DNA of 64,000 nt from positions 51,807 through 115,806 of the forward strand of contig CAYGEJ010000001.1 of NCBI GenBank assembly GCA_964348935.1. The letters are read 5' to 3'. Source of the stretch: an uncultured Candidatus Saccharibacteria bacterium. Its GTDB lineage: Bacteria > Patescibacteriota > Doudnabacteria > UBA920. Every line of letters begins with the position of its first letter. Position 1 is the first letter of the stretch. Below are positions 5,025-57,174 of the stretch, piece by piece. The position numbers and the translations under genes were made by a program. The notes under the pieces are model-generated. The model was not told where the DNA came from. It searched no databases and was given only the letters and a program-made list of their open reading frames with translations.

Positions 5025-6872
5025 ATGGCTATATTTGGCACAATTGATGAGCAGGAATTAAAAGAGAAGCGAGAAGCTTTGAACGAAGCTGAGAAAGAAA
5101 GAGATTTAAGCTCTAGTCTTGGAGATTTGGAAAAAACCTACAAGGAAGGTTTGACTACTCTAAAAGACCTTATTGCTCCTGCTTCGCTTAAATTTAATAG
5201 TTCTAACTTTGAACTTAACGGTAAGTTTGGTCGTAGTTTTTTTGTGCTGGCATATCCGCGATTTCTTTCTACCAATTGGTTGTCTTTTATTATTCAAGCC
5301 GAAGGTGCATTGGATTTGTCCATGTTTATATATCCGATTGAGTCTGCGGATATCTTAAAAAAATTGAAGTCAAAAGTCGGGGAATTGGGATCCCAAATGT
5401 CCATAAATCAATCTAAGGGAATGGTTCGCGACCCAATGCTGGAAACGGCGTATAAGGATGTTGAAGGTTTGCGTGATAACTTAATGCAGGGTACGGAAAA
5501 GTATTTTCGATTTGCTTTGTATTTTACAATTTATGCAAATGACCTAAAAGAGTTAGACAAATTTTCTTCAACGTTGGAAAGTTCTTTGGGGTCAAAATTA
5601 GTGGTTACTAAACGAGCTTTATTGCAAACTCAAAATGGGTTGAATTCCACTTTGCCTTTAGGTTTAGATGAACTGGATGTTGCTAGTAATATGAATACCA
5701 GCCCACTTTCTAGCTGCTTCCCCTTTGTTTCCTCGGACTTGAGTAGTAATGACGGAGTTCTTTATGGTATAAATAGGCATAACAATAGTCTAATCCTATT
5801 TGACCGCTTTGCAATGGAAAATGCTAATTCAGTAGTATTTGCCAAATCCGGTGCTGGGAAGTCTTACGCGGTAAAATTAGAGGTTTTGAGGGCCTTAATG
5901 GTGGGGACGGAAGTAATTATTGTTGACCCGGAAAATGAATATCAGCATTTAGCGTCTGCTGTGGGCGGTACTTATTTAAGCGTTTCTTTAAATTCACCTT
6001 CCAGAATTAACCCGTTTGATTTACCGGTAGCTATTGAAGGAGAAGATAATACCGATGTACTTAGAAGTTCGGTTATTAATTTACTTGGATTGTTTAGTTT
6101 AATGCTTGGAAAATTAAACCCGACTGAAGAAGCATTAATGGATAAAGCTATTTGGCAGACTTATGCGAAAAAAGATATTACTCCTCAGCTTGCAGATTTT
6201 CGTGGAGTGGAATATCCGACGATGAATGATTTGGTGGAGATTCTAAATGGTATGGTTGGGGCGGAAAGTTTGGCTCAGAGAATGACAAAATATACGGAAG
6301 GGACTTTTGCCGGGTTGTTAAACCAGCAGACCAATGTCGTTTTAAATAATCAGCTGGTAGTGTTTTCTATTCGCGACCTGGAAGAGGAGTTGCGACCTAT
6401 TTCTATGTACATTATTTTGAATTATATTTGGAATATTGTTCGATCAGAACTTAAAAAGCGTATACTTGTTGTGGATGAAGCTTGGATTTTAATGCAGCAT
6501 GAAGATAGTGCGCGTTTCTTGTTTGGTATAGCCAAGCGTGCTCGAAAATATTATTTAGGATTAACCACAATAACTCAAGATGTCGCAGATTTTTTAGCCT
6601 CGCCTTACGGTAAGCCAATTGTGACAAACTCCTCTATACAGCTTTTACTTAAGCAAAGCCCCGCAGCTATTAATGTAATTGCAGAAACTTTTTTTCTTAC
6701 AGAAGGTGAAAAATATTTGCTTTTGGAAAGCGAAGTTGGAGAAGGGATTTTCTTTGCAGGTTTAAAACACGCGGCGATTAAGATTTATGCGTCTTATGTT
6801 GAAGACCAGATTATTACCACGGATCCAAAACAGTTGTTGGAAATTCAGGATAGCCAGGATAAACTTGGTTAA
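5025..6872 (+). CDS. virB4: VirB4/TrbE/TraC-like type IV secretion ATPase (C-terminal ATPase part)
   Basis: Walker A FAKSGAGKSYAV, Walker B ILVVDEAWIL and the conserved VirB4 N-proximal segment (GKFGRSFFVLAYPRFLSTNWLSFII...DLSMFIYPIE). 615 aa. Confidence 0.8.
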   Translation: MAIFGTIDEQELKEKREALNEAEKERDLSSSLGDLEKTYKEGLTTLKDLIAPASLKFNSSNFELNGKFGRSFFVLAYPRFLSTNWLSFIIQAEGALDLSMFIYPIESADILKKLKSKVGELGSQMSINQSKGMVRDPMLETAYKDVEGLRDNLMQGTEKYFRFALYFTIYANDLKELDKFSSTLESSLGSKLVVTKRALLQTQNGLNSTLPLGLDELDVASNMNTSPLSSCFPFVSSDLSSNDGVLYGINRHNNSLILFDRFAMENANSVVFAKSGAGKSYAVKLEVLRALMVGTEVIIVDPENEYQHLASAVGGTYLSVSLNSPSRINPFDLPVAIEGEDNTDVLRSSVINLLGLFSLMLGKLNPTEEALMDKAIWQTYAKKDITPQLADFRGVEYPTMNDLVEILNGMVGAESLAQRMTKYTEGTFAGLLNQQTNVVLNNQLVVFSIRDLEEELRPISMYIILNYIWNIVRSELKKRILVVDEAWILMQHEDSARFLFGIAKRARKYYLGLTTITQDVADFLASPYGKPIVTNSSIQLLLKQSPAAINVIAETFFLTEGEKYLLLESEVGEGIFFAGLKHAAIKIYASYVEDQIITTDPKQLLEIQDSQDKLG

Positions 6873-10792: not shown

Positions 10793-12124
10793 ATGGTTAA
10801 ATCTCAATTAGTATTTATATGTAGTAACTGTCAATTTAAAGCCACCCGTTGGCAGGGGAAGTGCCCAGAATGTGGGCAGTGGAATTCTTTTGAAGAACAA
10901 AGGGTTACTATAACTGGAAAAAAAGGGTTCACAGGAATTGCTTCAAAATCTGTTGAGTTATCTGGGGTTGAGTTGTTAAATCATGCAAGAGTAAAAACCG
11001 GAATAGGAGAGTTTGATGAGGTCATTGGTTCAGGAATTGTGCCTGGAAGCTTAATATTGCTCGGTGGTGACCCGGGAATTGGAAAATCTACACTTGCCCT
11101 ACAACTTTCCATGCAAGTAAAAGCGGACGTGTTGTACGTCTCAGGAGAAGAATCGGTTAACCAAATTAAACTTCGAGCGAATAGATTGAATAAAAATCAT
11201 CAGTTGAATGTTTTGGCTGAAACCGATTTGCAAAGCGTACTTGCGAATGTAGATAGTCAAAAACCTGAATTGGTAATTATAGACTCAATTCAAACTATGT
11301 ATAGTGAAGAGGCGAGTGGTGTGGCTGGGGGAGTTGCTCAAGTGACTTTTGCTGTTCAGCAAATTATGCGTATGGCAAAACAAAACCATATTTCTTTTAT
11401 TGTAATTGGGCACGTAACAAAAGAAGGCTACTTAGCTGGCCCAAAAACTTTGGAACATATGGTAGACACAGTTTTGTATTTAGAAGGTGAGCGCTTTGCT
11501 TCTTTTAGAATTTTACGTTGTGTTAAAAACCGCTTTGGTACCACCAACGAAGTTGGAGTGTTTGAAATGCAAGGTGAAGGTTTGGTGGAAGTTAAAAATC
11601 CTTCCCAATTATTTTTAGGTGAAGATAGTATAAAAGCTTCTGGAAATGTTATAACTGCAGTCCAAGAGGGAAGCCGGGCATTGCTTTTAGAAATTCAAGC
11701 GCTTACCTCAATTAGTAATTTTGGTTACCCTAAAAGAACTACCGCTGGTTTTGATTCTAACCGTTTACAGTTGTTAACCGCTATTCTTGCTAAGCGCGCG
11801 GGACTTAACCTTTCTAACCAGGATATTTATATTAATGTAGTAGGTGGAATAAAAATAGAAGAGCCAACCGCAGACTTGGCCGTGGCTTTGGCTATTTATT
11901 CTAGTCTTAAAGATATTATTATTAGTGATACTGTAGTTATAGGTGAGCTTGGGCTTTCTGGTGAGGTTAGGTATGTTTCTAATTTAGAAAAAAGAATAAA
12001 AGAAGCAAGTAAGCTTGGGTTTAAAAAAGTAATTTGTCCAAAAAATAAACTGACCTTAAAAATTCCGGGAGTGGAAATTGTAGGTGTAAAAACTTTAAGC
12101 GAAGCTATTAAAAATATTTCATAA
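10793..12124 (+). CDS. radA: DNA repair protein RadA/Sms
   Basis: N-terminal C4 zinc finger (CSNCQFKATRWQGKCPECGQW), Walker A GGDPGIGKSTL, KNRFG motif and a Lon-like C-terminal domain. 443 aa. Confidence 0.9.
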   Translation: MVKSQLVFICSNCQFKATRWQGKCPECGQWNSFEEQRVTITGKKGFTGIASKSVELSGVELLNHARVKTGIGEFDEVIGSGIVPGSLILLGGDPGIGKSTLALQLSMQVKADVLYVSGEESVNQIKLRANRLNKNHQLNVLAETDLQSVLANVDSQKPELVIIDSIQTMYSEEASGVAGGVAQVTFAVQQIMRMAKQNHISFIVIGHVTKEGYLAGPKTLEHMVDTVLYLEGERFASFRILRCVKNRFGTTNEVGVFEMQGEGLVEVKNPSQLFLGEDSIKASGNVITAVQEGSRALLLEIQALTSISNFGYPKRTTAGFDSNRLQLLTAILAKRAGLNLSNQDIYINVVGGIKIEEPTADLAVALAIYSSLKDIIISDTVVIGELGLSGEVRYVSNLEKRIKEASKLGFKKVICPKNKLTLKIPGVEIVGVKTLSEAIKNIS

Positions 12125-12130
12125 ATAAAA

Positions 12131-12189
12131 GGGCGGGAAATGTCTACGACTTGCAGGTGTACGTAGATCAATTCTCGCCCTTTGTTTGG
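12131..12189. terminator. bidirectional intrinsic terminator (nested hairpin followed by a U-run on both strands)
   Basis: GGGCGGGA...UCUACG-loop-CGUAGA...UCUCGCCC followed by UUUGUUU on the + strand and UUUUAUUUAU on the - strand. Sits right after the radA stop and at the 3' end of the minus-strand peptide transcript. Confidence 0.5.
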
Positions 12190-12300
12190 AGCCCCATGAC
12201 CCCACTAAAGACTACCTGTCCGGGAAGTGGTTGGTTCCACTTCTCAGGCCTGGCAAACTGTGCCAGAGTCTCAAGTGAGAAAACGGTTCTGGGTTCTTGG

Positions 12301-12495
12301 TTATACAGGCATCAGGCCTGTCGTTTGGAAGACACTGAGACTACCTTTCTTCTCCGGTTTGGAGATTTTTTGAAAAGGTTCATGGCACATACTGCATTTT
12401 TGTGCCGCAATTGGCTGTAATATTCCACAGCACCAAGTTTCAGGTGGTCCCGTTTGAAGAACCTTTTTTGGTTCAGTCTCGGGTTTATTCTTCAT
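12301..12495 (-). CDS. small Cys/His-rich peptide (64 aa) with a zinc-ribbon-like CC..CxxCH motif
   Basis: ATG preceded by UAAGGAGCAACUACC. Sequence MKNKPETEPKKVLQTGPPETWCCGILQPIAAQKCSMCHEPFQ... The C-S-M-C-H-E-P-F segment is reminiscent of the CSxCHPF zinc motif of ribosomal protein L31, but the overall match is weak. Lies in a GC-enriched intergenic island. Confidence 0.45.
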   Translation of the reverse strand: MKNKPETEPKKVLQTGPPETWCCGILQPIAAQKCSMCHEPFQKISKPEKKGSLSVFQTTGLMPV

Positions 12496-12578
12496 GGTAG
12501 TTGCTCCTTAATTGATACCGATATGGCAATCGGCTGTCTATACCAGAAGGCAATCCGGCACAGACCTAACAAATCCCC

Positions 12579-12622
12579 CTGAAGATTTCATTTATTATAC
12601 TGAAATCTTCAGAAATGTCAAT
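12579..12622 (-). promoter_or_regulatory. consensus sigma70 promoter (TTGACA-N16-TATAAT) with the -10 hexamer inside a 12-bp inverted repeat, a putative operator
   Basis: Minus strand reads aTTGACAtttctgaagatttcagTATAATaaatgaaatcttcag. Arms CTGAAGATTTCA / TGAAATCTTCAG flank the -10. The -35 begins 2 nt after the recG stop codon. Confidence 0.4.
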
Positions 12623-12625
12623 CTA

Positions 12626-14689
12626 CTATTCAAAATGTATAATTTTTCCTTCGATTTTCTTTGCAAGTAGTAGGAAGTTTTTTAAGTTTATATCCACACT
12701 TATTATTTTTATGGCTTCCTCGCGGGCAATAGGAATTAAAGAAGTGTATGCAGGGGAGAAGTATTTAAAATTCCAACCAGATTGTTTGAAGCCATAAAGG
12801 TCGCCAAAGCCTCTTTGTTTTAAGTCTAGCTCGGCAAGCGCAAAACCGTCGGTGGTTTTACTAAAATCTTCCAGGCGTTTTTTGGTAAGTAAATATTGTT
12901 CTTCGTTGTTTATACCAACAGTTTCAGACATAAACAAAAAACAATAACTTTGATGCTCAGCTCTACCCACACGACCACGGAATTGGTGTAGTTGAGCAAG
13001 TCCAAAACGCTCAGCTCCTTCAATAAGCATGACCGATGCATTGGGGACGTCTACCCCAACTTCTACTACAGAAGTAGAAACTAGAATGTGAATTTTTCCA
13101 GCCAAAAAGTCCGCCATAACTTGGTCTTTATCTGCACTACGCATTTTTCCATGTAAGAGCCCAACGTTTAAACCTTTAAAAATTTTTTGCAAGGTCTCGT
13201 GCTCAGCTTTAGCAGACTTAATTTGTAAGCTTTCATTTTCTTCTATTAGTGGAGTTATTACAAAGGCTTGTCTGCCTTGTTTAATTTGTTCAGAAATAAA
13301 ATTATAAGCCTCGGTTCTTGAGTTTGGTTCTACTAAAAAAGTAGAAATAGCTTTTCTGCCCTGTGGTTTAGTTTTTATTTGGGAAATATCCAGTTCGCCA
13401 TAATAGGCAAGTTGTAGTGTTCTTGGAATGGGTGTGGCGGTAAGTGAGAGTAAATGCGGGACGCGACCTGTATTTTGCAAAAGAGAAGAGCGTTGCTCTA
13501 CGCCTAGCCTGTGTTGTTCGTCTATGGTTACCAGAGCTAATTTTTTAAATTTTACTTTGTCTGCAATTAAAGCATGGGTACCAAAATAAATACCAGGCAT
13601 TCCTTCAGCAAGGAGCGCCTGAAGTTTTTTCTTTAAAATTACTTCGCCGTTTAATTTACACTCTTTACTTGTAATTAAAGCTATAGTTACATCTTTAAAA
13701 TATTTTTGAGCAGAGGCGTAATGTTGTTTGGCAAGTATTTCTGTTGGAGCTAGGAACGCTGTCTGAAGTTCTTCTTTAGCGGTTTCTAAACTGGCAATAA
13801 AAGCTACCAGAGTTTTTCCGCTTCCAACATCACCCTCAACTAAACGATTCATAGGGGTATTTTTTTCAATATCTTTTAAAATATCCCAACTGGCTTGTTT
13901 TTGGGCTGGAGTGAGTTGGAAAGGCAGGCTGTCTACAAAGGATTTGACTAAATCTTTATTAAACTTAATTTTATAACTTTGTCTTAAGGCAAGTTCCTTT
14001 TTGTGCTTTTGGGCAAGTAGTTGATTTATAAATATTTCTTCAAACGCCAGCCTGGTTTTAGCTCGGTCTACCTCTTCCAGTTGTTTTGGGAAATGGCTAA
14101 TGTTAATTGTTTTTGAAATTGTTAGTAAATTGTATTTTTTTAAAATATCTTCAGGGATAATTTCTTCGACCTCGGTTGCTAATGAAAGTATGTTATTTAT
14201 TAAGTTTCTTAGCGTTTTTGGGTAGAGTCCTTCAGTCATGTGATAAATTGGGACAAGGCGGGCTGTGTGAAGCGGGAAATCGGAAATTTTTTCGTATATG
14301 GGATTGGTTAGTTGGAGTTGGTTGGCGTAATATTCCGGTGTACCGGACAGGTAGAGTTGGTCGCCTGGCTTTAGACTTTTGGCTAAGTAGGGTTGGTTGA
14401 ACCAAATAATTTTCAAAGCCCCGGTAGTGTCGAATACCTGGGCTTCTGCAAGTGATATATAACTTTTAAAAGATTTTCTACTCCCTATGCTTTTTAGCGT
14501 AACGGCTATAGTAGCCGGTTGTTCAGGGATTAGTTCTTGAATTTTTTTAGTGATTGAAAAATCTAAATATCTAAACGGAAAGTATAACAAAAGATCTCGG
14601 ACTGTTAAAATTCCGAGTTTTTTTAAAGCCGCAATTTGCGGCTTTGTAATTTTAGGAAGTACTTGAATTGGCGAGTTTATATTTAGCAT
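12626..14689 (-). CDS. recG: ATP-dependent DNA helicase RecG
   Basis: Wedge/helicase architecture. GDVGSGKT Walker A, DEQHRLGV (DEQH box), QFRGRVGR motif. 687 aa. Confidence 0.9.
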   Translation of the reverse strand: MLNINSPIQVLPKITKPQIAALKKLGILTVRDLLLYFPFRYLDFSITKKIQELIPEQPATIAVTLKSIGSRKSFKSYISLAEAQVFDTTGALKIIWFNQPYLAKSLKPGDQLYLSGTPEYYANQLQLTNPIYEKISDFPLHTARLVPIYHMTEGLYPKTLRNLINNILSLATEVEEIIPEDILKKYNLLTISKTINISHFPKQLEEVDRAKTRLAFEEIFINQLLAQKHKKELALRQSYKIKFNKDLVKSFVDSLPFQLTPAQKQASWDILKDIEKNTPMNRLVEGDVGSGKTLVAFIASLETAKEELQTAFLAPTEILAKQHYASAQKYFKDVTIALITSKECKLNGEVILKKKLQALLAEGMPGIYFGTHALIADKVKFKKLALVTIDEQHRLGVEQRSSLLQNTGRVPHLLSLTATPIPRTLQLAYYGELDISQIKTKPQGRKAISTFLVEPNSRTEAYNFISEQIKQGRQAFVITPLIEENESLQIKSAKAEHETLQKIFKGLNVGLLHGKMRSADKDQVMADFLAGKIHILVSTSVVEVGVDVPNASVMLIEGAERFGLAQLHQFRGRVGRAEHQSYCFLFMSETVGINNEEQYLLTKKRLEDFSKTTDGFALAELDLKQRGFGDLYGFKQSGWNFKYFSPAYTSLIPIAREEAIKIISVDINLKNFLLLAKKIEGKIIHFE

Positions 14690-22743: not shown

Positions 22744-22814
22744 TTTAGTATTTTTATTGCTAGGTATAAATTTCAGTTTAGCTTATAATTATTATATCAG
22801 ATAAATTTAGTATA

Positions 22815-22855
22815 GTATGTGTTATCACTCGTGTCAAGAGAGTGATAACACATAC
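22815..22855. promoter_or_regulatory. CIRCE-like inverted repeat (TTATCACTC-N9-GAGTGATAA within a 16-bp perfect palindrome) overlapping the clpC promoter
   Basis: GTATGTGTTATCACTC gtgtcaaga GAGTGATAACACATAC. Matches the HrcA operator consensus TTAGCACTC-N9-GAGTGCTAA with one change per arm. On the minus strand the spacer holds a TTGACA -35, and 17 nt further on is TATACT. Confidence 0.45.
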
Positions 22856-22863
22856 TTAAAATC

Positions 22864-31360: not shown

Positions 31361-31684
31361 TTAAATAGGATGACGTGGGCTGTCGCCGAAAGGGTCGGAA
31401 TCCAGAAATTCTTTCCCTGGGTGCCCTGATTGGCTTGGTATGTCATCAGGGTTTCCAGAGGGGGTGTTGATGGTCGCACCCATCCAACCGTTATCCACAG
31501 CGGCTGAATTGTCTTCGAGGTAGTGCTCTTTCACACCACGTTTTGGCGACAGTAACCCGTCGGCGTATGGCGGGGCGATAATGATGGAATGTTGTAGTGG
31601 TTGCTGGCCAATCTTGTCGCAACAGTGACGTATGCTACAGGGTTGGTCAATTTCTTTATGGCAATTGCAAGGACATATCGCCAT
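31361..31684 (-). CDS. Cys/His-rich small protein P3 (107 aa), paralogue of the upstream 41-aa peptide plus a C-terminal extension
   Basis: Internal ATG of the 212-aa track ORF with an SD (UAAGGAGAAAAACU-AUG) that overlaps the stop of the preceding peptide gene. N-terminus MAICPCNCHKEIDQPCSIRHCCDKIGQQPL. GC-rich codon usage unlike the host. Confidence 0.5.
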   Translation of the reverse strand: MAICPCNCHKEIDQPCSIRHCCDKIGQQPLQHSIIIAPPYADGLLSPKRGVKEHYLEDNSAAVDNGWMGATINTPSGNPDDIPSQSGHPGKEFLDSDPFGDSPRHPI

Positions 31685-31695
31685 AGTTTTTCTCC

Positions 31696-31821
31696 TTAGT
31701 CTGTGAACGGGTGAGTTTGGTCGACCTCTTCGAGAGGTTTTCCTTTCTGCGAACAGCAACGGTGATTTTCGCACTCGTCGTTTTCTACTCCCACATGGCA
31801 AGAGCAGTGACAGGTTTTCAT
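31696..31821 (-). CDS. Cys/His-rich peptide P2 (41 aa): MKTCHCSCHVGVENDECENHRCCSQKGKPLEEVDQTHPFTD
   Basis: My own reverse-complement translation. ATG preceded by AAAGGAGGACUGGAAA. Not in the ORF track (under 60 aa). Shares C-x-C-x-C-H-x(6,7)-C-x(2,3)-H-x-C-C-x-K-x-G-x-x-P-L with P3. Confidence 0.45.
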   Translation of the reverse strand: MKTCHCSCHVGVENDECENHRCCSQKGKPLEEVDQTHPFTD

Positions 31822-31881
31822 TTTCCAGTCCTCCTTTGAATGAAATAGTAGCAAGAAAAGGGGAAAAAGGCAAAAAGAAAA

Positions 31882-31911
31882 CGCGGACAGGGTGGCAAGC
31901 CACTGTCCGCG
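31882..31911 (-). terminator. intra-operon intrinsic terminator or attenuator between the PEP-CTERM gene and the Cys-rich peptide genes
   Basis: Minus strand CGCGGACAG-UGGCUUGCCACC-CUGUCCGCG followed by UUUUCUUUUUGCCUUUUUCC. Confidence 0.4.
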
Positions 31912-31973
31912 TAAAGGTTGTAATGCGCGTTGCTATTTTTACCCAGCACTTTGCCGTGTGGTGGGGTTTCTTC

Positions 31974-32720
31974 TTACCGCTGGCGCCGTATCGCGGCAAT
32001 GCCTACGAGTCCAGCACCCATCAGTACGAAGGTCGTGGGTTCGGGAGTCTCGGTCCCAAGTCCACCCGACGGCTGGCTCGGAAAGCTGTAGTCCCAATAC
32101 TCAGGGTGGCGGTAAAAGTAAGGAGTGTGTTCACCCCTCAGGTAGTTTACAATCTCCCCAAGGTTGTTGATGTCGTAGGAGAACCACACTGAGGCGAGCA
32201 AGTAGTTATCGGTGTAACGATAACCGCTGTTAGTGCCGGCACAACCGCCACTAAGCCCTGCCAGAACCAAATCCCGGCAGTCGTAGGTACTGGTGGTGTT
32301 TTCTGATACCGCAATAAGCGACCTCGATTTTTGTCCGTAAACATGGGTTATGTTCTCGAACGGAAATAGGACTGTCTGGATATACGAGTTCGTTATAAAA
32401 CTCAACGATTCGTACAAGGTGTTAGTCCGTCCCGAGTTACTGGTTGGGTCTGTGAACATAGTAATGCTTACTTGATTGTCTTTTCTTTCGTTGAGACTTG
32501 AACCCTGGTAACTCGTAATCCAGCGACCAGAACCATCTGGGGCTTCGTATGACCCCTGATAGGTGGTGAGTGTGCGATAGTTGTAATCGTACCCATTGGC
32601 ATAACCACCATCTAAGTTGAGGTTCCAGGGCTGAAAATCGTCCTGGAGGACGATTGTGCCGGCCGTTGCCGACATGGCCAGAGCAAAAAAGCCGAACATA
32701 GAAATAAAAAGAGCGCGCAT
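31974..32720 (-). CDS. PEP-CTERM sorting-domain protein (secreted, Gly/Tyr/Asn-rich)
   Basis: Internal ATG with strong SD (AAGGAGGACUUAC-AUG). Signal peptide MRALFISMFGFFALAMSATAG. C-terminal TPEPTTFVLMGAGLVGIAAIRRQR is the PEP-CTERM tripartite motif (PEP, TM helix, Arg cluster). 248 aa from this start. The track ORF extends upstream to 32879 with no RBS. Confidence 0.6.
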   Translation of the reverse strand: MRALFISMFGFFALAMSATAGTIVLQDDFQPWNLNLDGGYANGYDYNYRTLTTYQGSYEAPDGSGRWITSYQGSSLNERKDNQVSITMFTDPTSNSGRTNTLYESLSFITNSYIQTVLFPFENITHVYGQKSRSLIAVSENTTSTYDCRDLVLAGLSGGCAGTNSGYRYTDNYLLASVWFSYDINNLGEIVNYLRGEHTPYFYRHPEYWDYSFPSQPSGGLGTETPEPTTFVLMGAGLVGIAAIRRQR

Positions 32721-32838
32721 GTAAGTCCTCCTTAAGGACTTGTGGAGCTTAAAAGCTCCACGGTTTTGTTCTTGGTTGGCCTTTAGGGGCCGAAAATAAA
32801 TAGATCGAACTGTTAAAAGTTTTACAGGTCGACGATAT

Positions 32839-32867
32839 ATTATACTCTTTTTTTGGGTTTTTGTCAA
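32839..32867 (-). promoter_or_regulatory. consensus sigma70 promoter (TTGACA-N17-TATAAT) of the island 2 operon
   Basis: Minus strand cattGACAaaaacccaaaaaaagagTATAATatatcg. About 115-nt structured 5' UTR, including a hairpin that pairs part of the SD (AAGUCC-UUAAGGA-GGACUU) next to the start codon. Confidence 0.4.
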
Positions 32868-32878
32868 TGCTAAATACA

Positions 32879-32906
32879 AATAACACCCTTATTTAAGGGT
32901 GTTATT
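32879..32906 (-). terminator. hairpin terminator or insulator at the island 2 right edge, downstream of the HTH gene
   Basis: AAUAACACCCU-UAUUUA-AGGGUGUUAUU (11-bp stem) then UUGUAUUU on the minus strand. Sits between the HTH gene stop and the island promoter. Confidence 0.4.
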
Positions 32907-50860: not shown

Positions 50861-50967
50861 GTATATAAATTATAGCTGATTTGGAAAAAGTGTCAAATGA
50901 CAAAATGAAAGCGACCCAGACTGCTTTCTCACTCGGTAAAGGTGAAGGGCTGTGGGGTCGCTTGTCG

Positions 50968-55791: not shown

Positions 55792-56271
55792 ATGATTTCA
55801 ATAATTGCTGCTGTAGCGGAAAATAATGTTATAGGTATAAACAACACTCTTCCGTGGAATATCCCAGAAGATTTAAAACATTTTCAGGAAGTTACCAAAG
55901 GTAAAATTGTTTTAATGGGCAATAAAACATTTGAGTCTATTGTTTCTATTTTGGGTAAGCCACTGCCAAACAGAAAAAATGTTGTGGTAACATTAAATAA
56001 ATCCTATACTGTGCCAGCTGGAGTGGAGTTGGAGTTTGATTTATTTAATGCTTTAGAAAAATATAAAAATGAAGATTTATTTGTAATTGGCGGGGCGCAA
56101 ATTTGGAAATTGGCTTTGCCATTTGTAGACCAGTTGTATATAACTCACGTACATAAAAATTATGAAGGCGATGCTTTTTTCCCAGAAGTTAACTGGCAAG
56201 AATGGGAAAAAGTAGAAGAAGAAAAGCATTCAGAGTTTACATTTGCTAAATACATAAAAAAATCCCCATAA
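55792..56271 (+). CDS. folA: dihydrofolate reductase
   Basis: MISIIAAVAENNVIGINNTLPWNIPEDLKHFQEVTKGKIVLMG is the canonical DHFR N-terminus. 159 aa. Stop codon lies in the loop of a CCCCA-UAAU-UGGGG hairpin. Confidence 0.85.
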   Translation: MISIIAAVAENNVIGINNTLPWNIPEDLKHFQEVTKGKIVLMGNKTFESIVSILGKPLPNRKNVVVTLNKSYTVPAGVELEFDLFNALEKYKNEDLFVIGGAQIWKLALPFVDQLYITHVHKNYEGDAFFPEVNWQEWEKVEEEKHSEFTFAKYIKKSP

Positions 56272-56654: not shown

Positions 56655-56683
56655 TTGACAAAACGGGTAAAAGGGTGTATAAT
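56655..56683 (+). promoter_or_regulatory. consensus sigma70 promoter (TTGACA-N17-TATAAT) for the RHH regulator gene, with a second TATAAT 15 nt downstream
   Basis: cccTTGACAaaacgggtaaaagggtgTATAATaatcaattttttgtTATAATttg. Lies 50 nt upstream of the ATG at 56734. Confidence 0.4.
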
Positions 56684-56733: not shown

Positions 56734-57174
56734 ATGTCACAATATATCGATCGTCACAAAAACAAACGTATGGTTGCACCAAGACTGTGCGAAACCGAAA
56801 TCCAAAAGCTCATGGCAACAAGGATGTTGCCAGGTCACGACCGCCATTCGAGGTTAGAGTTTTTGCTTACGCTAATGACCGAATTAGCCGAGCAGGAACT
56901 TGAATATCGTTTGGCGCCTACTAATACAGAGGCAAGGCATGGGCACGGAACACATCTTCGTATTTCAGACGAGCTGTGGGACAGATTACAAACCTATGCT
57001 TCAGTGTATAGGATGAGAACAGGTGAGCTTGCTCACGAACTGATACTGCTTGGCCTAGAGCTAGTGGAAGAAATAGAGAAAGTGGTCAAGTGGCCACTTA
57101 GGAAGGAGGAGATAAAAAGCCGGTTTAAAAGGACACTTGAACTTCGGTATGGGCGCATGCGCCAGCCGATTTAA
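56734..57174 (+). CDS. tandem ribbon-helix-helix (RHH) DNA-binding protein, putative repressor
   Basis: Two beta-alphaA-alphaB units: KRMVAPRLCETEIQKLMATRMLPGHDRHSRLEFLLTLMTELAEQ and THLRISDELWDRLQTYASVYRMRTGELAHELILLGLELVEE. GC-rich. 146 aa. Confidence 0.5.
   Translation: MSQYIDRHKNKRMVAPRLCETEIQKLMATRMLPGHDRHSRLEFLLTLMTELAEQELEYRLAPTNTEARHGHGTHLRISDELWDRLQTYASVYRMRTGELAHELILLGLELVEEIEKVVKWPLRKEEIKSRFKRTLELRYGRMRQPI

Follow-up and report, generated by a model that had tools for sequence, protein, structure and literature searches.

Among small proteins that consist of a single zinc-ribbon or zinc-finger domain, the archaeal C(P)XCG micro-proteins, such as those of Haloferax volcanii, are the best studied, and Brz from Halobacterium is a further example (PMC11241148, PMC10716476, PMC2253796). 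Here, we describe a gene for a peptide of 64 amino acids (aa) that is comparable with them in several respects. The gene lies in the gap between radA and recG in a stretch of DNA of 64 kb (the whole stretch that was analysed, referred to below as the window) from a member of Candidatus Doudnabacteria (Patescibacteria, or candidate phyla radiation, CPR), whose genome contains about 36% guanine plus cytosine (GC). As in the haloarchaeal proteins, the peptide has fewer than 70 residues, one cysteine motif (about 20 residues, its two knuckles 10 residues apart) as its only predicted ordered element, charged tails that are predicted to be disordered, a stand-alone gene in a gap that looks intergenic and a likely, though putative, binding or regulatory role. 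By contrast, it is bacterial, it has a vicinal CC where they have CPxCG, its second knuckle is CxxC with a His or Gly behind it, it shares no sequence family with them, and its metal binding is putative.

The control region of the gene recalls promoters that are occluded by a repressor. Promoters of the tet, lac O1 and LexA type have a palindromic operator that extends over their −10 box and start site. Here too, a perfect palindrome covers the −10 box and the predicted start of a consensus promoter, and it is likewise built of two sub-sites, at a distance of two helical turns. Its sequence resembles none of the operator boxes that we know.

We put at roughly 0.6 the probability that, as its sequence suggests, the minus strand of the gap carries a genuine and self-contained gene for a small protein, with a repressible promoter and a putative zinc-ribbon product, which is accessory to the genome. 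The anatomy of the gene can be followed from promoter to terminator, its product is conserved at the protein level in three species, and this product matches no known family. Nearly every element described in an earlier, sequence-only reading of this DNA is present, and an independent transcription unit on the minus strand, with an operator-like repeat on a consensus promoter and an open reading frame (ORF), is supported. Small proteins are under-annotated and CPR bacteria are rich in unknown genes. As it stands, the locus leaves the general picture unchanged; it is a clean case in which all the signals (promoter, operator-like repeat, leader, Shine-Dalgarno sequence, ORF and terminator) are legible, and it would be a convenient test case for the heterologous expression of CPR micro-proteins and for repressor hunting.

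Promoter and operator-like repeat

The −35 box TTGACA (12,616–12,621) and the −10 box TATAAT (12,594–12,599) lie on the minus strand, are separated by a 16-nucleotide (nt) spacer and match the consensus at 12 of 12 positions. Such a promoter had been read from the sequence before, with its −35 box beginning 2 nt after the recG stop codon; the distance is in fact 4 nt. From the usual distance of 6–8 nt to the −10 box, transcription would start at about 12,586–12,588. There are only four promoters with a 12/12 match in the window, including this one, while about 0.14 would be expected from base composition, according to our estimate.

The −10 box is bracketed by the perfect inverted repeat CTGAAGATTTCA-N10-TGAAATCTTCAG (12,579–12,612), whose arms (12,579–12,590 and 12,601–12,612) have 12 nt each, are 100% complementary and are separated by 10 nt. 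The promoter spacer contains one of the arms, while the predicted start site is covered by the second. Additionally, each arm is itself a palindrome, (C)TGAA-N3-TTCAG, and the centres of the arms are 21 bp apart. Perfect inverted repeats that reach 12 bp or more, with their arms separated by 3–20 nt, are found 12 times in the window, compared with 0.2 times in first-order Markov randomisations (about 60-fold). Most of these 12 repeats are terminators; the promoter repeat, instead, is AT-rich, has no U-tract and lies exactly on the promoter. A palindromic, operator-like element that overlaps the core promoter is a feature of the small gene, and the −10 box does sit in the loop of a perfect 12-bp repeat, as had been reported. 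The earlier proposal of a repressor-controlled promoter stands as far as the operator-like repeat on a consensus promoter is concerned, while repression itself is what this layout would suggest.

A second operator-in-promoter layout, with a different repeat sequence, was observed elsewhere in the window. There, the 17-bp perfect inverted repeat AGTATGTGTTATCACTC-N9-GAGTGATAACACATACT (22,814–22,856) overlaps the −35 box and the spacer of a minus-strand promoter at 22,837 that matches the consensus at 11 of 12 positions.

Transcript structure

The predicted mRNA has about 465 nt. Its 5′ leader of about 92 nt (12,496–12,588, minus strand) contains, according to folding and a repeat search, two tandem hairpins (12,536–12,565 and 12,517–12,534), the tops of which (upper stem and loop) carry GCCG(G)AUUGCC at 12,559–12,549 and 12,534–12,525. 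The corresponding repeats, GCCGGATTGCC at 12,559 and GCCGATTGCC at 12,534, are the only two copies in the window. These are the direct repeats that had been placed in an untranslated region (UTR) of about 95 nt. The Shine-Dalgarno sequence AAGGAG (12,504–12,509, minus strand) is found 8 nt before the ATG, as previously described, and the ORF occupies positions 12,301–12,495 of the minus strand, including the stop codon.

A 3′ UTR of about 175 nt follows, close to the 170 nt given before and structured as stated there. It contains a predicted three-way junction (12,190–12,290, minus strand) with 54% GC and a folding energy of −44 kcal/mol (z-score, z = −2.75), and it ends in a nested hairpin (12,128–12,183; −25.9 kcal/mol, z = −6.75). 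This hairpin begins 4 nt past the radA stop codon and is followed by U-rich tracts on both strands; it is read as a bidirectional intrinsic terminator that would serve both the small gene and radA, as the sequence-only reading had it.

The encoded peptide and its relatives

The 64-aa peptide (P0001) is basic. Cys22, Cys23, Cys34 and Cys37, together with His38, form a core that resembles a zinc ribbon (CC, ten residues, CxxC(H)), and its tails, rich in Lys, Pro and Glu, are predicted to be disordered. In two relatives, L009 and L010, whose RadA proteins are 74% and 71% identical to that of the window, the gap between radA and recG also contains a small ORF on the same strand, with a ribosome-binding site of its own (P0006, 61 aa, and P0005, 91 aa, respectively). 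All three peptides carry CC-x3-QP-x2-A-x2-C-x2/3-C, with C22, C23, Q27, P28, A31, C34 and C37 invariant, and pairwise BLASTP comparisons between them give expectation values (E) of 7e-8, 1e-3 and 7e-6.

This conservation is not observed in the DNA. The gaps of L009 and L010 cannot be aligned, and blastn with the gap DNA finds nothing except identical contigs from the same species. Moreover, the conserved residues are encoded by varied codons (TGC and TGT, CCA and CCG, GCA, GCG and GCC, CAT and CAC, and, for Ser, AGT versus TCC). Because the gap DNA is not alignable and the codons of the conserved residues differ, selection has acted on the protein and not on the DNA. The ORF is very probably real, since it is conserved in two syntenic relatives, and the sequences indicate that it very probably encodes a small cysteine-knuckle protein.

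Beyond these three members, the family could not be extended. The shared motif has no other occurrence in 1.1 Mb of DNA from the retrieved loci, translated in six frames. Word-indexed searches of 5.8 billion proteins with the single sequence, which returned only itself, and with a three-sequence profile brought up no protein beyond the three members, while an exhaustive phmmer search of 1.84 billion representatives returned the query itself and three translated tandem-repeat artefacts. No similarity to the peptide was found in viral contigs, phage records or plasmid records, and nothing in Pfam, NCBIfam or PADLOC exceeded the threshold. Where the sources give a name, it is “hypothetical protein”. 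The suggestion that the peptide might be something new is, therefore, in agreement with the searches of known families and of billions of proteins.

Predicted fold and family comparisons

An AlphaFold2 model built from the three-sequence alignment has a predicted local distance difference test score (pLDDT) of about 85 for residues 21–40, with a beta hairpin at residues 19–28 and disordered tails. From its sequence and its model, the protein is filed as an orphan in the broad class of one-domain zinc-ribbon micro-proteins and as a putative metal binder.

The archaeal zinc ribbon L40e (eL40; PDB 2AYJ, NF003161, PF01020) is the only recurring resemblance in sequence, and it is far below the family cut-offs. 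The best PDB match of P0001 is L40e of S. solfataricus (2AYJ; E = 0.012 with phmmer, 0.017 with the profile), with 15 of 32 residues identical and 10 residues between the knuckles in both proteins. Independently, the best NCBIfam match of P0006 is L40e (E = 0.065), but its score of 12.8 bits is well short of the 54 bits that the family requires; neither P0001 nor P0005 matches NF003161, and no match to L40e in Pfam was found with hmmscan. The shared core can be written as CG-x-L-[NQ]-P-I-x-A-x-K-C-x-x-C-H, and the similarity extends to the spacing of the knuckles and to a Lys-rich tail. In eL40, the form is CxxC-x10-CxxC, so that the second knuckle and the 10-residue spacing match, whereas the first knuckle is CC in the peptide, with one ligand displaced. 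The profile pairs the CC with C..C by opening a gap of two residues, so that the first Cys of the CxxC knuckle is missing. The gene described here also differs in being patchy and accessory in its distribution. We know of no eL40 in bacteria.

The sequence-only reading had compared the peptide with ribosomal protein bL31 (rpmE, PF01197) and suggested an L31-like paralogue. This was not borne out. A hmmscan search of Pfam-A at E ≤ 10 found no match to L31, and BLASTP against L31 of E. coli aligned only CS.CH-PF, where 6 of 8 residues agree around a gap (E = 0.068 in this one pairwise comparison, not significant). Both are small proteins with cysteines and share the short string CS.CH(E)PF. However, the knuckles are 18 residues apart in L31 and 10 in the peptide, the conserved N- and C-terminal segments of L31 are missing (there is neither IHP nor the TG(K/R)Q motif), and the arrangement CxC...CxxCHPF(Y/F)TG is not found. 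An identity with bL31 was, for these reasons, rejected, and the ORF is not an rpmE, a possibility that had been raised; there is no rpmE within the 64-kb window. A c-type cytochrome (CXXCH) was also rejected, as the peptide has neither a hydrophobic N-terminus nor a signal peptide, and the His is not conserved: in P0005, it is replaced by Gly and the motif becomes CxxxC. The match to Paired_CXXCH in Pfam (E = 0.024) is below the cut-off of that family.

Proposed mechanism

With a sigma-70 consensus promoter, the gene would have a high intrinsic promoter strength, and a dimeric or tetrameric repressor bound to the repeat would hold the promoter off until relieved. As the terminator scan detects no terminator of recG ahead of the small gene, read-through from recG may add a low level of basal co-expression. 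The transcript would then display GCCG(G)AUUGCC on two look-alike hairpins of the leader, followed by the strong Shine-Dalgarno sequence and 64 codons, the three-way junction and the long hairpin, where both the small-gene transcript and the convergent radA transcript would end. The structured UTRs may stabilise this short mRNA and insulate it from convergent radA transcription, with a possible role in stability or autoregulation. The only ordered part of the peptide would be the cysteine knuckle or zinc ribbon of about 20 residues, which may hold one metal ion through C22/C23 and C34/C37 and, like other small zinc-ribbon proteins, may dock onto a nucleic acid or protein partner.

Several observations weigh against this reading. 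Regarding control, neither the 12-mer nor CTGAA-N3-TTCAG has another copy in the 64-kb window or in the loci of relatives, which were searched for the regulon that further copies would define and contain none. Additionally, no repressor gene was found and no regulator adjoins the gene; in these two respects, an adjacent regulator and a second site, the locus differs from the repressor-occluded promoters discussed above. Regarding the product, the family has only three members, which are similar over about 20 residues. The closest folds found by Foldseek, RanBP2/NZF zinc ribbons (about 1.2 Å over 24 residues), all have E > 2 and are not significant. The first knuckle is a vicinal CC and not CxxC, which makes metal binding uncertain. 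In Haloferax, predicted C(P)XCG fingers often bind no zinc, AlphaFold2 cannot tell the binders apart, and sequence-based prediction of zinc binding is unreliable, so that metal binding has to be measured (PMC11241148). Finally, the folding of the whole transcript (z = −6.2, compared with −4.4 for the plus strand) and of the ORF segment itself, which is over-structured (z = −3.5), would suit a non-coding RNA as well.

Alternative explanations

This last point leads to the first alternative, that is, that a strong promoter drives the transcription of the island into a structured RNA of about 460 nt that is non-coding, with an ORF that is incidental or marginally translated. We consider this improbable. 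The gap has, with 45% GC, the highest value among the intergenic stretches of at least 150 nt in a window of 36% GC; the enrichment that had been noted is thus real, while the 48% given for it is reached only at peaks (47–48%). Besides the strand difference in the folding of the transcript, the leader is structured on the minus strand (z = −2.1) but not on the plus strand (z = +0.14), a specificity that derives from three G-U pairs. An excess of structure is likewise found in the homologous transcripts of L009 (z = −6.9) and L010 (z = −2.9), and consensus promoters are typical of stable RNA genes. However, it is the peptide motif that has been conserved across species, while its codons have changed synonymously and the RNA has not been conserved, and a canonical Shine-Dalgarno sequence and an ATG are present in all three species. 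The 3′ element has no sequence or structure homologue in any relative, and a covariance model of the three-way junction found no match elsewhere in the loci of relatives. Rfam does not assign the island to any family either: at gathering scores, it detects only two transfer RNAs (tRNAs) in the whole window, at E ≤ 10 over positions 11,900–12,900 it gives only noise, and at gathering scores over 14 related loci it returns tRNAs or noise, with no family in the gaps of the relatives. ARAGORN found no transfer-messenger RNA (tmRNA). Consequently, known structured RNAs (RNase P, tmRNA, 6S, signal recognition particle RNA and riboswitches) were rejected, including the assignment to an RNA such as RNase P that had been contemplated before.

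It is just as improbable, in our view, that the island is a recently acquired or decaying cargo without a maintained function, the GC excess and the hairpins of which would reflect the composition of the donor and terminator debris. The junction in which it lies is hypervariable. In the window, radA (10,793–12,124, plus strand) and recG (12,626–14,689, minus strand), which is upstream of the small gene and on the same strand, converge on a gap of 501 nt. The closest relatives of RadA are found in metagenome-assembled genomes of Doudnabacteria, with 62–79% identity, and the two genes are convergent in 15 Doudnabacteria genomes and 5 metagenome contigs, whose loci (L003–L017 and L083–L087) were compared at the junction. 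Their gaps range from 7 nt to 1.8 kb and are essentially empty (7–130 nt) in six species. Seven of them (L005, L006, L008, L011, L012, L014 and L083) hold a gene for a DksA/TraR zinc finger (PF01258, E = 6e-9) in the same orientation, and four (L004, L007, L017 and L087) hold other small genes. The gap of L011 also carries an ORF for a 264-aa transposase that resembles those of insertion sequences, and L006 and L087 share their flanks (83% and 79% identity) but differ in their central genes. The composition of the ORF points in the same direction: its GC content at third codon positions (GC3) is 0.38, compared with 0.27–0.30 in neighbouring genes, and the genomes of L009 and L010 have 47–50% GC. 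Either selection for structure or the acquisition of the gene from a relative richer in GC could account for this raised GC3.

By contrast, maintenance is suggested by the intact state of the 12/12 promoter, Shine-Dalgarno sequence, perfect repeat and terminator, and the core of the peptide has been conserved between species whose RadA proteins are only 71–74% identical. Nor does the island look like debris of a mobile element, as it has no similarity to phage or plasmid records, or like a remnant of dksA: tblastn finds none in the gap, and the hhalign probability is 8.7%, so that this origin was rejected. The peptide does share with DksA/TraR the slot, the orientation and the character of a small cysteine-finger protein, but there is no homology; it lacks the coiled-coil part, its Cys spacing differs from CxxC-x17-CxxC, and it has no match to the Pfam family. 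The small gene is accessory and lineage-restricted and not part of the core. In the relatives, the tails between the stop codon of the cargo and radA (150–330 nt) are GC-rich and dense in hairpins, with a strong terminator at the end, and they have no common k-mer of at least 8 nt; they are read as species-specific structures for stabilisation or termination and not as a conserved RNA gene. The radA/recG junction of Doudnabacteria is also a hot spot for the exchange of small cysteine-finger regulators, either DksA/TraR or orphans.

A third alternative, to which we give slightly less credit, affects only the repeat, which would be not an operator but an RNA hairpin that ends recG read-through transcripts, as a terminator or stabiliser, with an incidental overlap with the promoter. 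It is consistent with the lack of another recG terminator before the small gene in the terminator scan and with the folding of the repeat as RNA (−19.3 kcal/mol, z = −4.1), which three G-U pairs lengthen on the minus strand. However, its stem is AT-rich, it is followed by GGAUUUGUU instead of a U-tract, and the terminator scan does not detect it. The register is also exact, with an arm in the spacer and the other over the start site, and palindromes within the arms with such a distance between their centres are typical of protein binding sites.

More doubtful is an extension of the small-protein reading in which the three CC-x10-CxxC peptides constitute a CPR-specific family of RNA-binding micro-proteins. 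In this case, the protein would either bind the two look-alike GCCG(G)AUUGCC hairpins in the leader of its own mRNA, with a feedback role, or associate, as an eL40-like zinc ribbon, with the reduced CPR ribosome. If either role were true, a micro-protein would be governed by a new control module whose layers are the operator, the leader and the structured 3′ UTR. When the leader was modelled by covariance from its single sequence, one weak match was obtained in 230 kb of relatives (E of about 0.01–0.05, these values being rough). The match falls between radA and recG in L012, immediately ahead of the gene for another orphan Cys protein, of 88 aa. In the alignment of both leaders, all the pairs are retained, six of them through double changes, but this alignment was fitted to the model; a plain alignment that includes the promoters is weak, with about half of the window positions invariant. 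When the model was rebuilt with the two leaders and run over 38 loci, it yielded no additional member. The related leader of L012 is, judging by these alignments, a lead for what is possibly a cis-regulatory and perhaps protein-binding element, and not a result.

The locus of L012 deserves a separate description. At 5,400–5,800 (minus strand), downstream of dksA, there is a second small transcription unit with a TTGACT-17-TATAAA promoter, the two-hairpin leader that is weakly related to that of the window and the gene for the 88-aa protein (P0007). The best, weak match of P0007 is subunit P of the archaeal RNA polymerase (E = 0.047); it has no detectable relationship with the three-member family and is an orphan too.

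The least probable alternative is that the peptide is a paralogue of a ribosomal protein, an L31-like or L40e-like zinc ribbon on the CPR ribosome, with the repeat as a metal-responsive operator. Zur-controlled L31 paralogues are a precedent for such control, and the boxes of the Fur family are short-spaced 7-1-7 or 9-1-9 repeats. The small size, basic character, zinc-ribbon core and strong promoter of the gene, as well as the L40e matches of P0001 and P0006 and the equal spacing between knuckles, would fit this idea, but those scores are far below the cut-offs, Pfam gives neither L31 nor L40e, the similarity to L31 is confined to 6 of 8 residues, the repeat does not look like a Fur-family box, and the gene is missing from most sister species, where the gaps are empty or hold other genes, while a ribosomal component would be expected to be retained.

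Other features of the window

The three other promoters with a 12/12 match are found at 32,867, 50,896 and 56,655. The first of them (minus strand, TTGACA-17-TATAAT) is at the start of a second GC-rich island (31,361–32,879, minus strand; 48–53% GC). This island contains the gene, with a GC3 of 0.54, for a protein of 301 aa that bears a PEP-CTERM sorting motif (PF07589, E = 1e-5), followed by two paralogous Cys/His peptides in tandem, each with its own Shine-Dalgarno sequence, pepA (31,821–31,696, 41 aa) and pepB (31,684–31,361, 107 aa). They share the motif CxCxCH-x6/7-C-x2/3-H-x0/1-CC and have no match in Pfam or Rfam, and the folding of the RNA from the tail of the island has z = −4.3. A thematic link between these peptides and the one encoded between radA and recG had been proposed on the basis of their Cys/His content; BLAST gives no alignment between them, and the motif of the second island is a different one (CxCxCH...CC).

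The promoter at 56,655 (plus strand) precedes an ORF of 146 aa (56,734–57,174) with no Pfam match. Upstream of this promoter, there is an intergenic stretch of 441 nt with 42% GC, which follows a 159-aa ORF (55,792–56,271) that we take, without a family scan, to be dihydrofolate reductase (folA)-like. Finally, the promoter at 50,896 (minus strand) lies within a stretch of 1.1 kb that is free of ORFs of at least 110 aa, downstream of an rplA-like gene.

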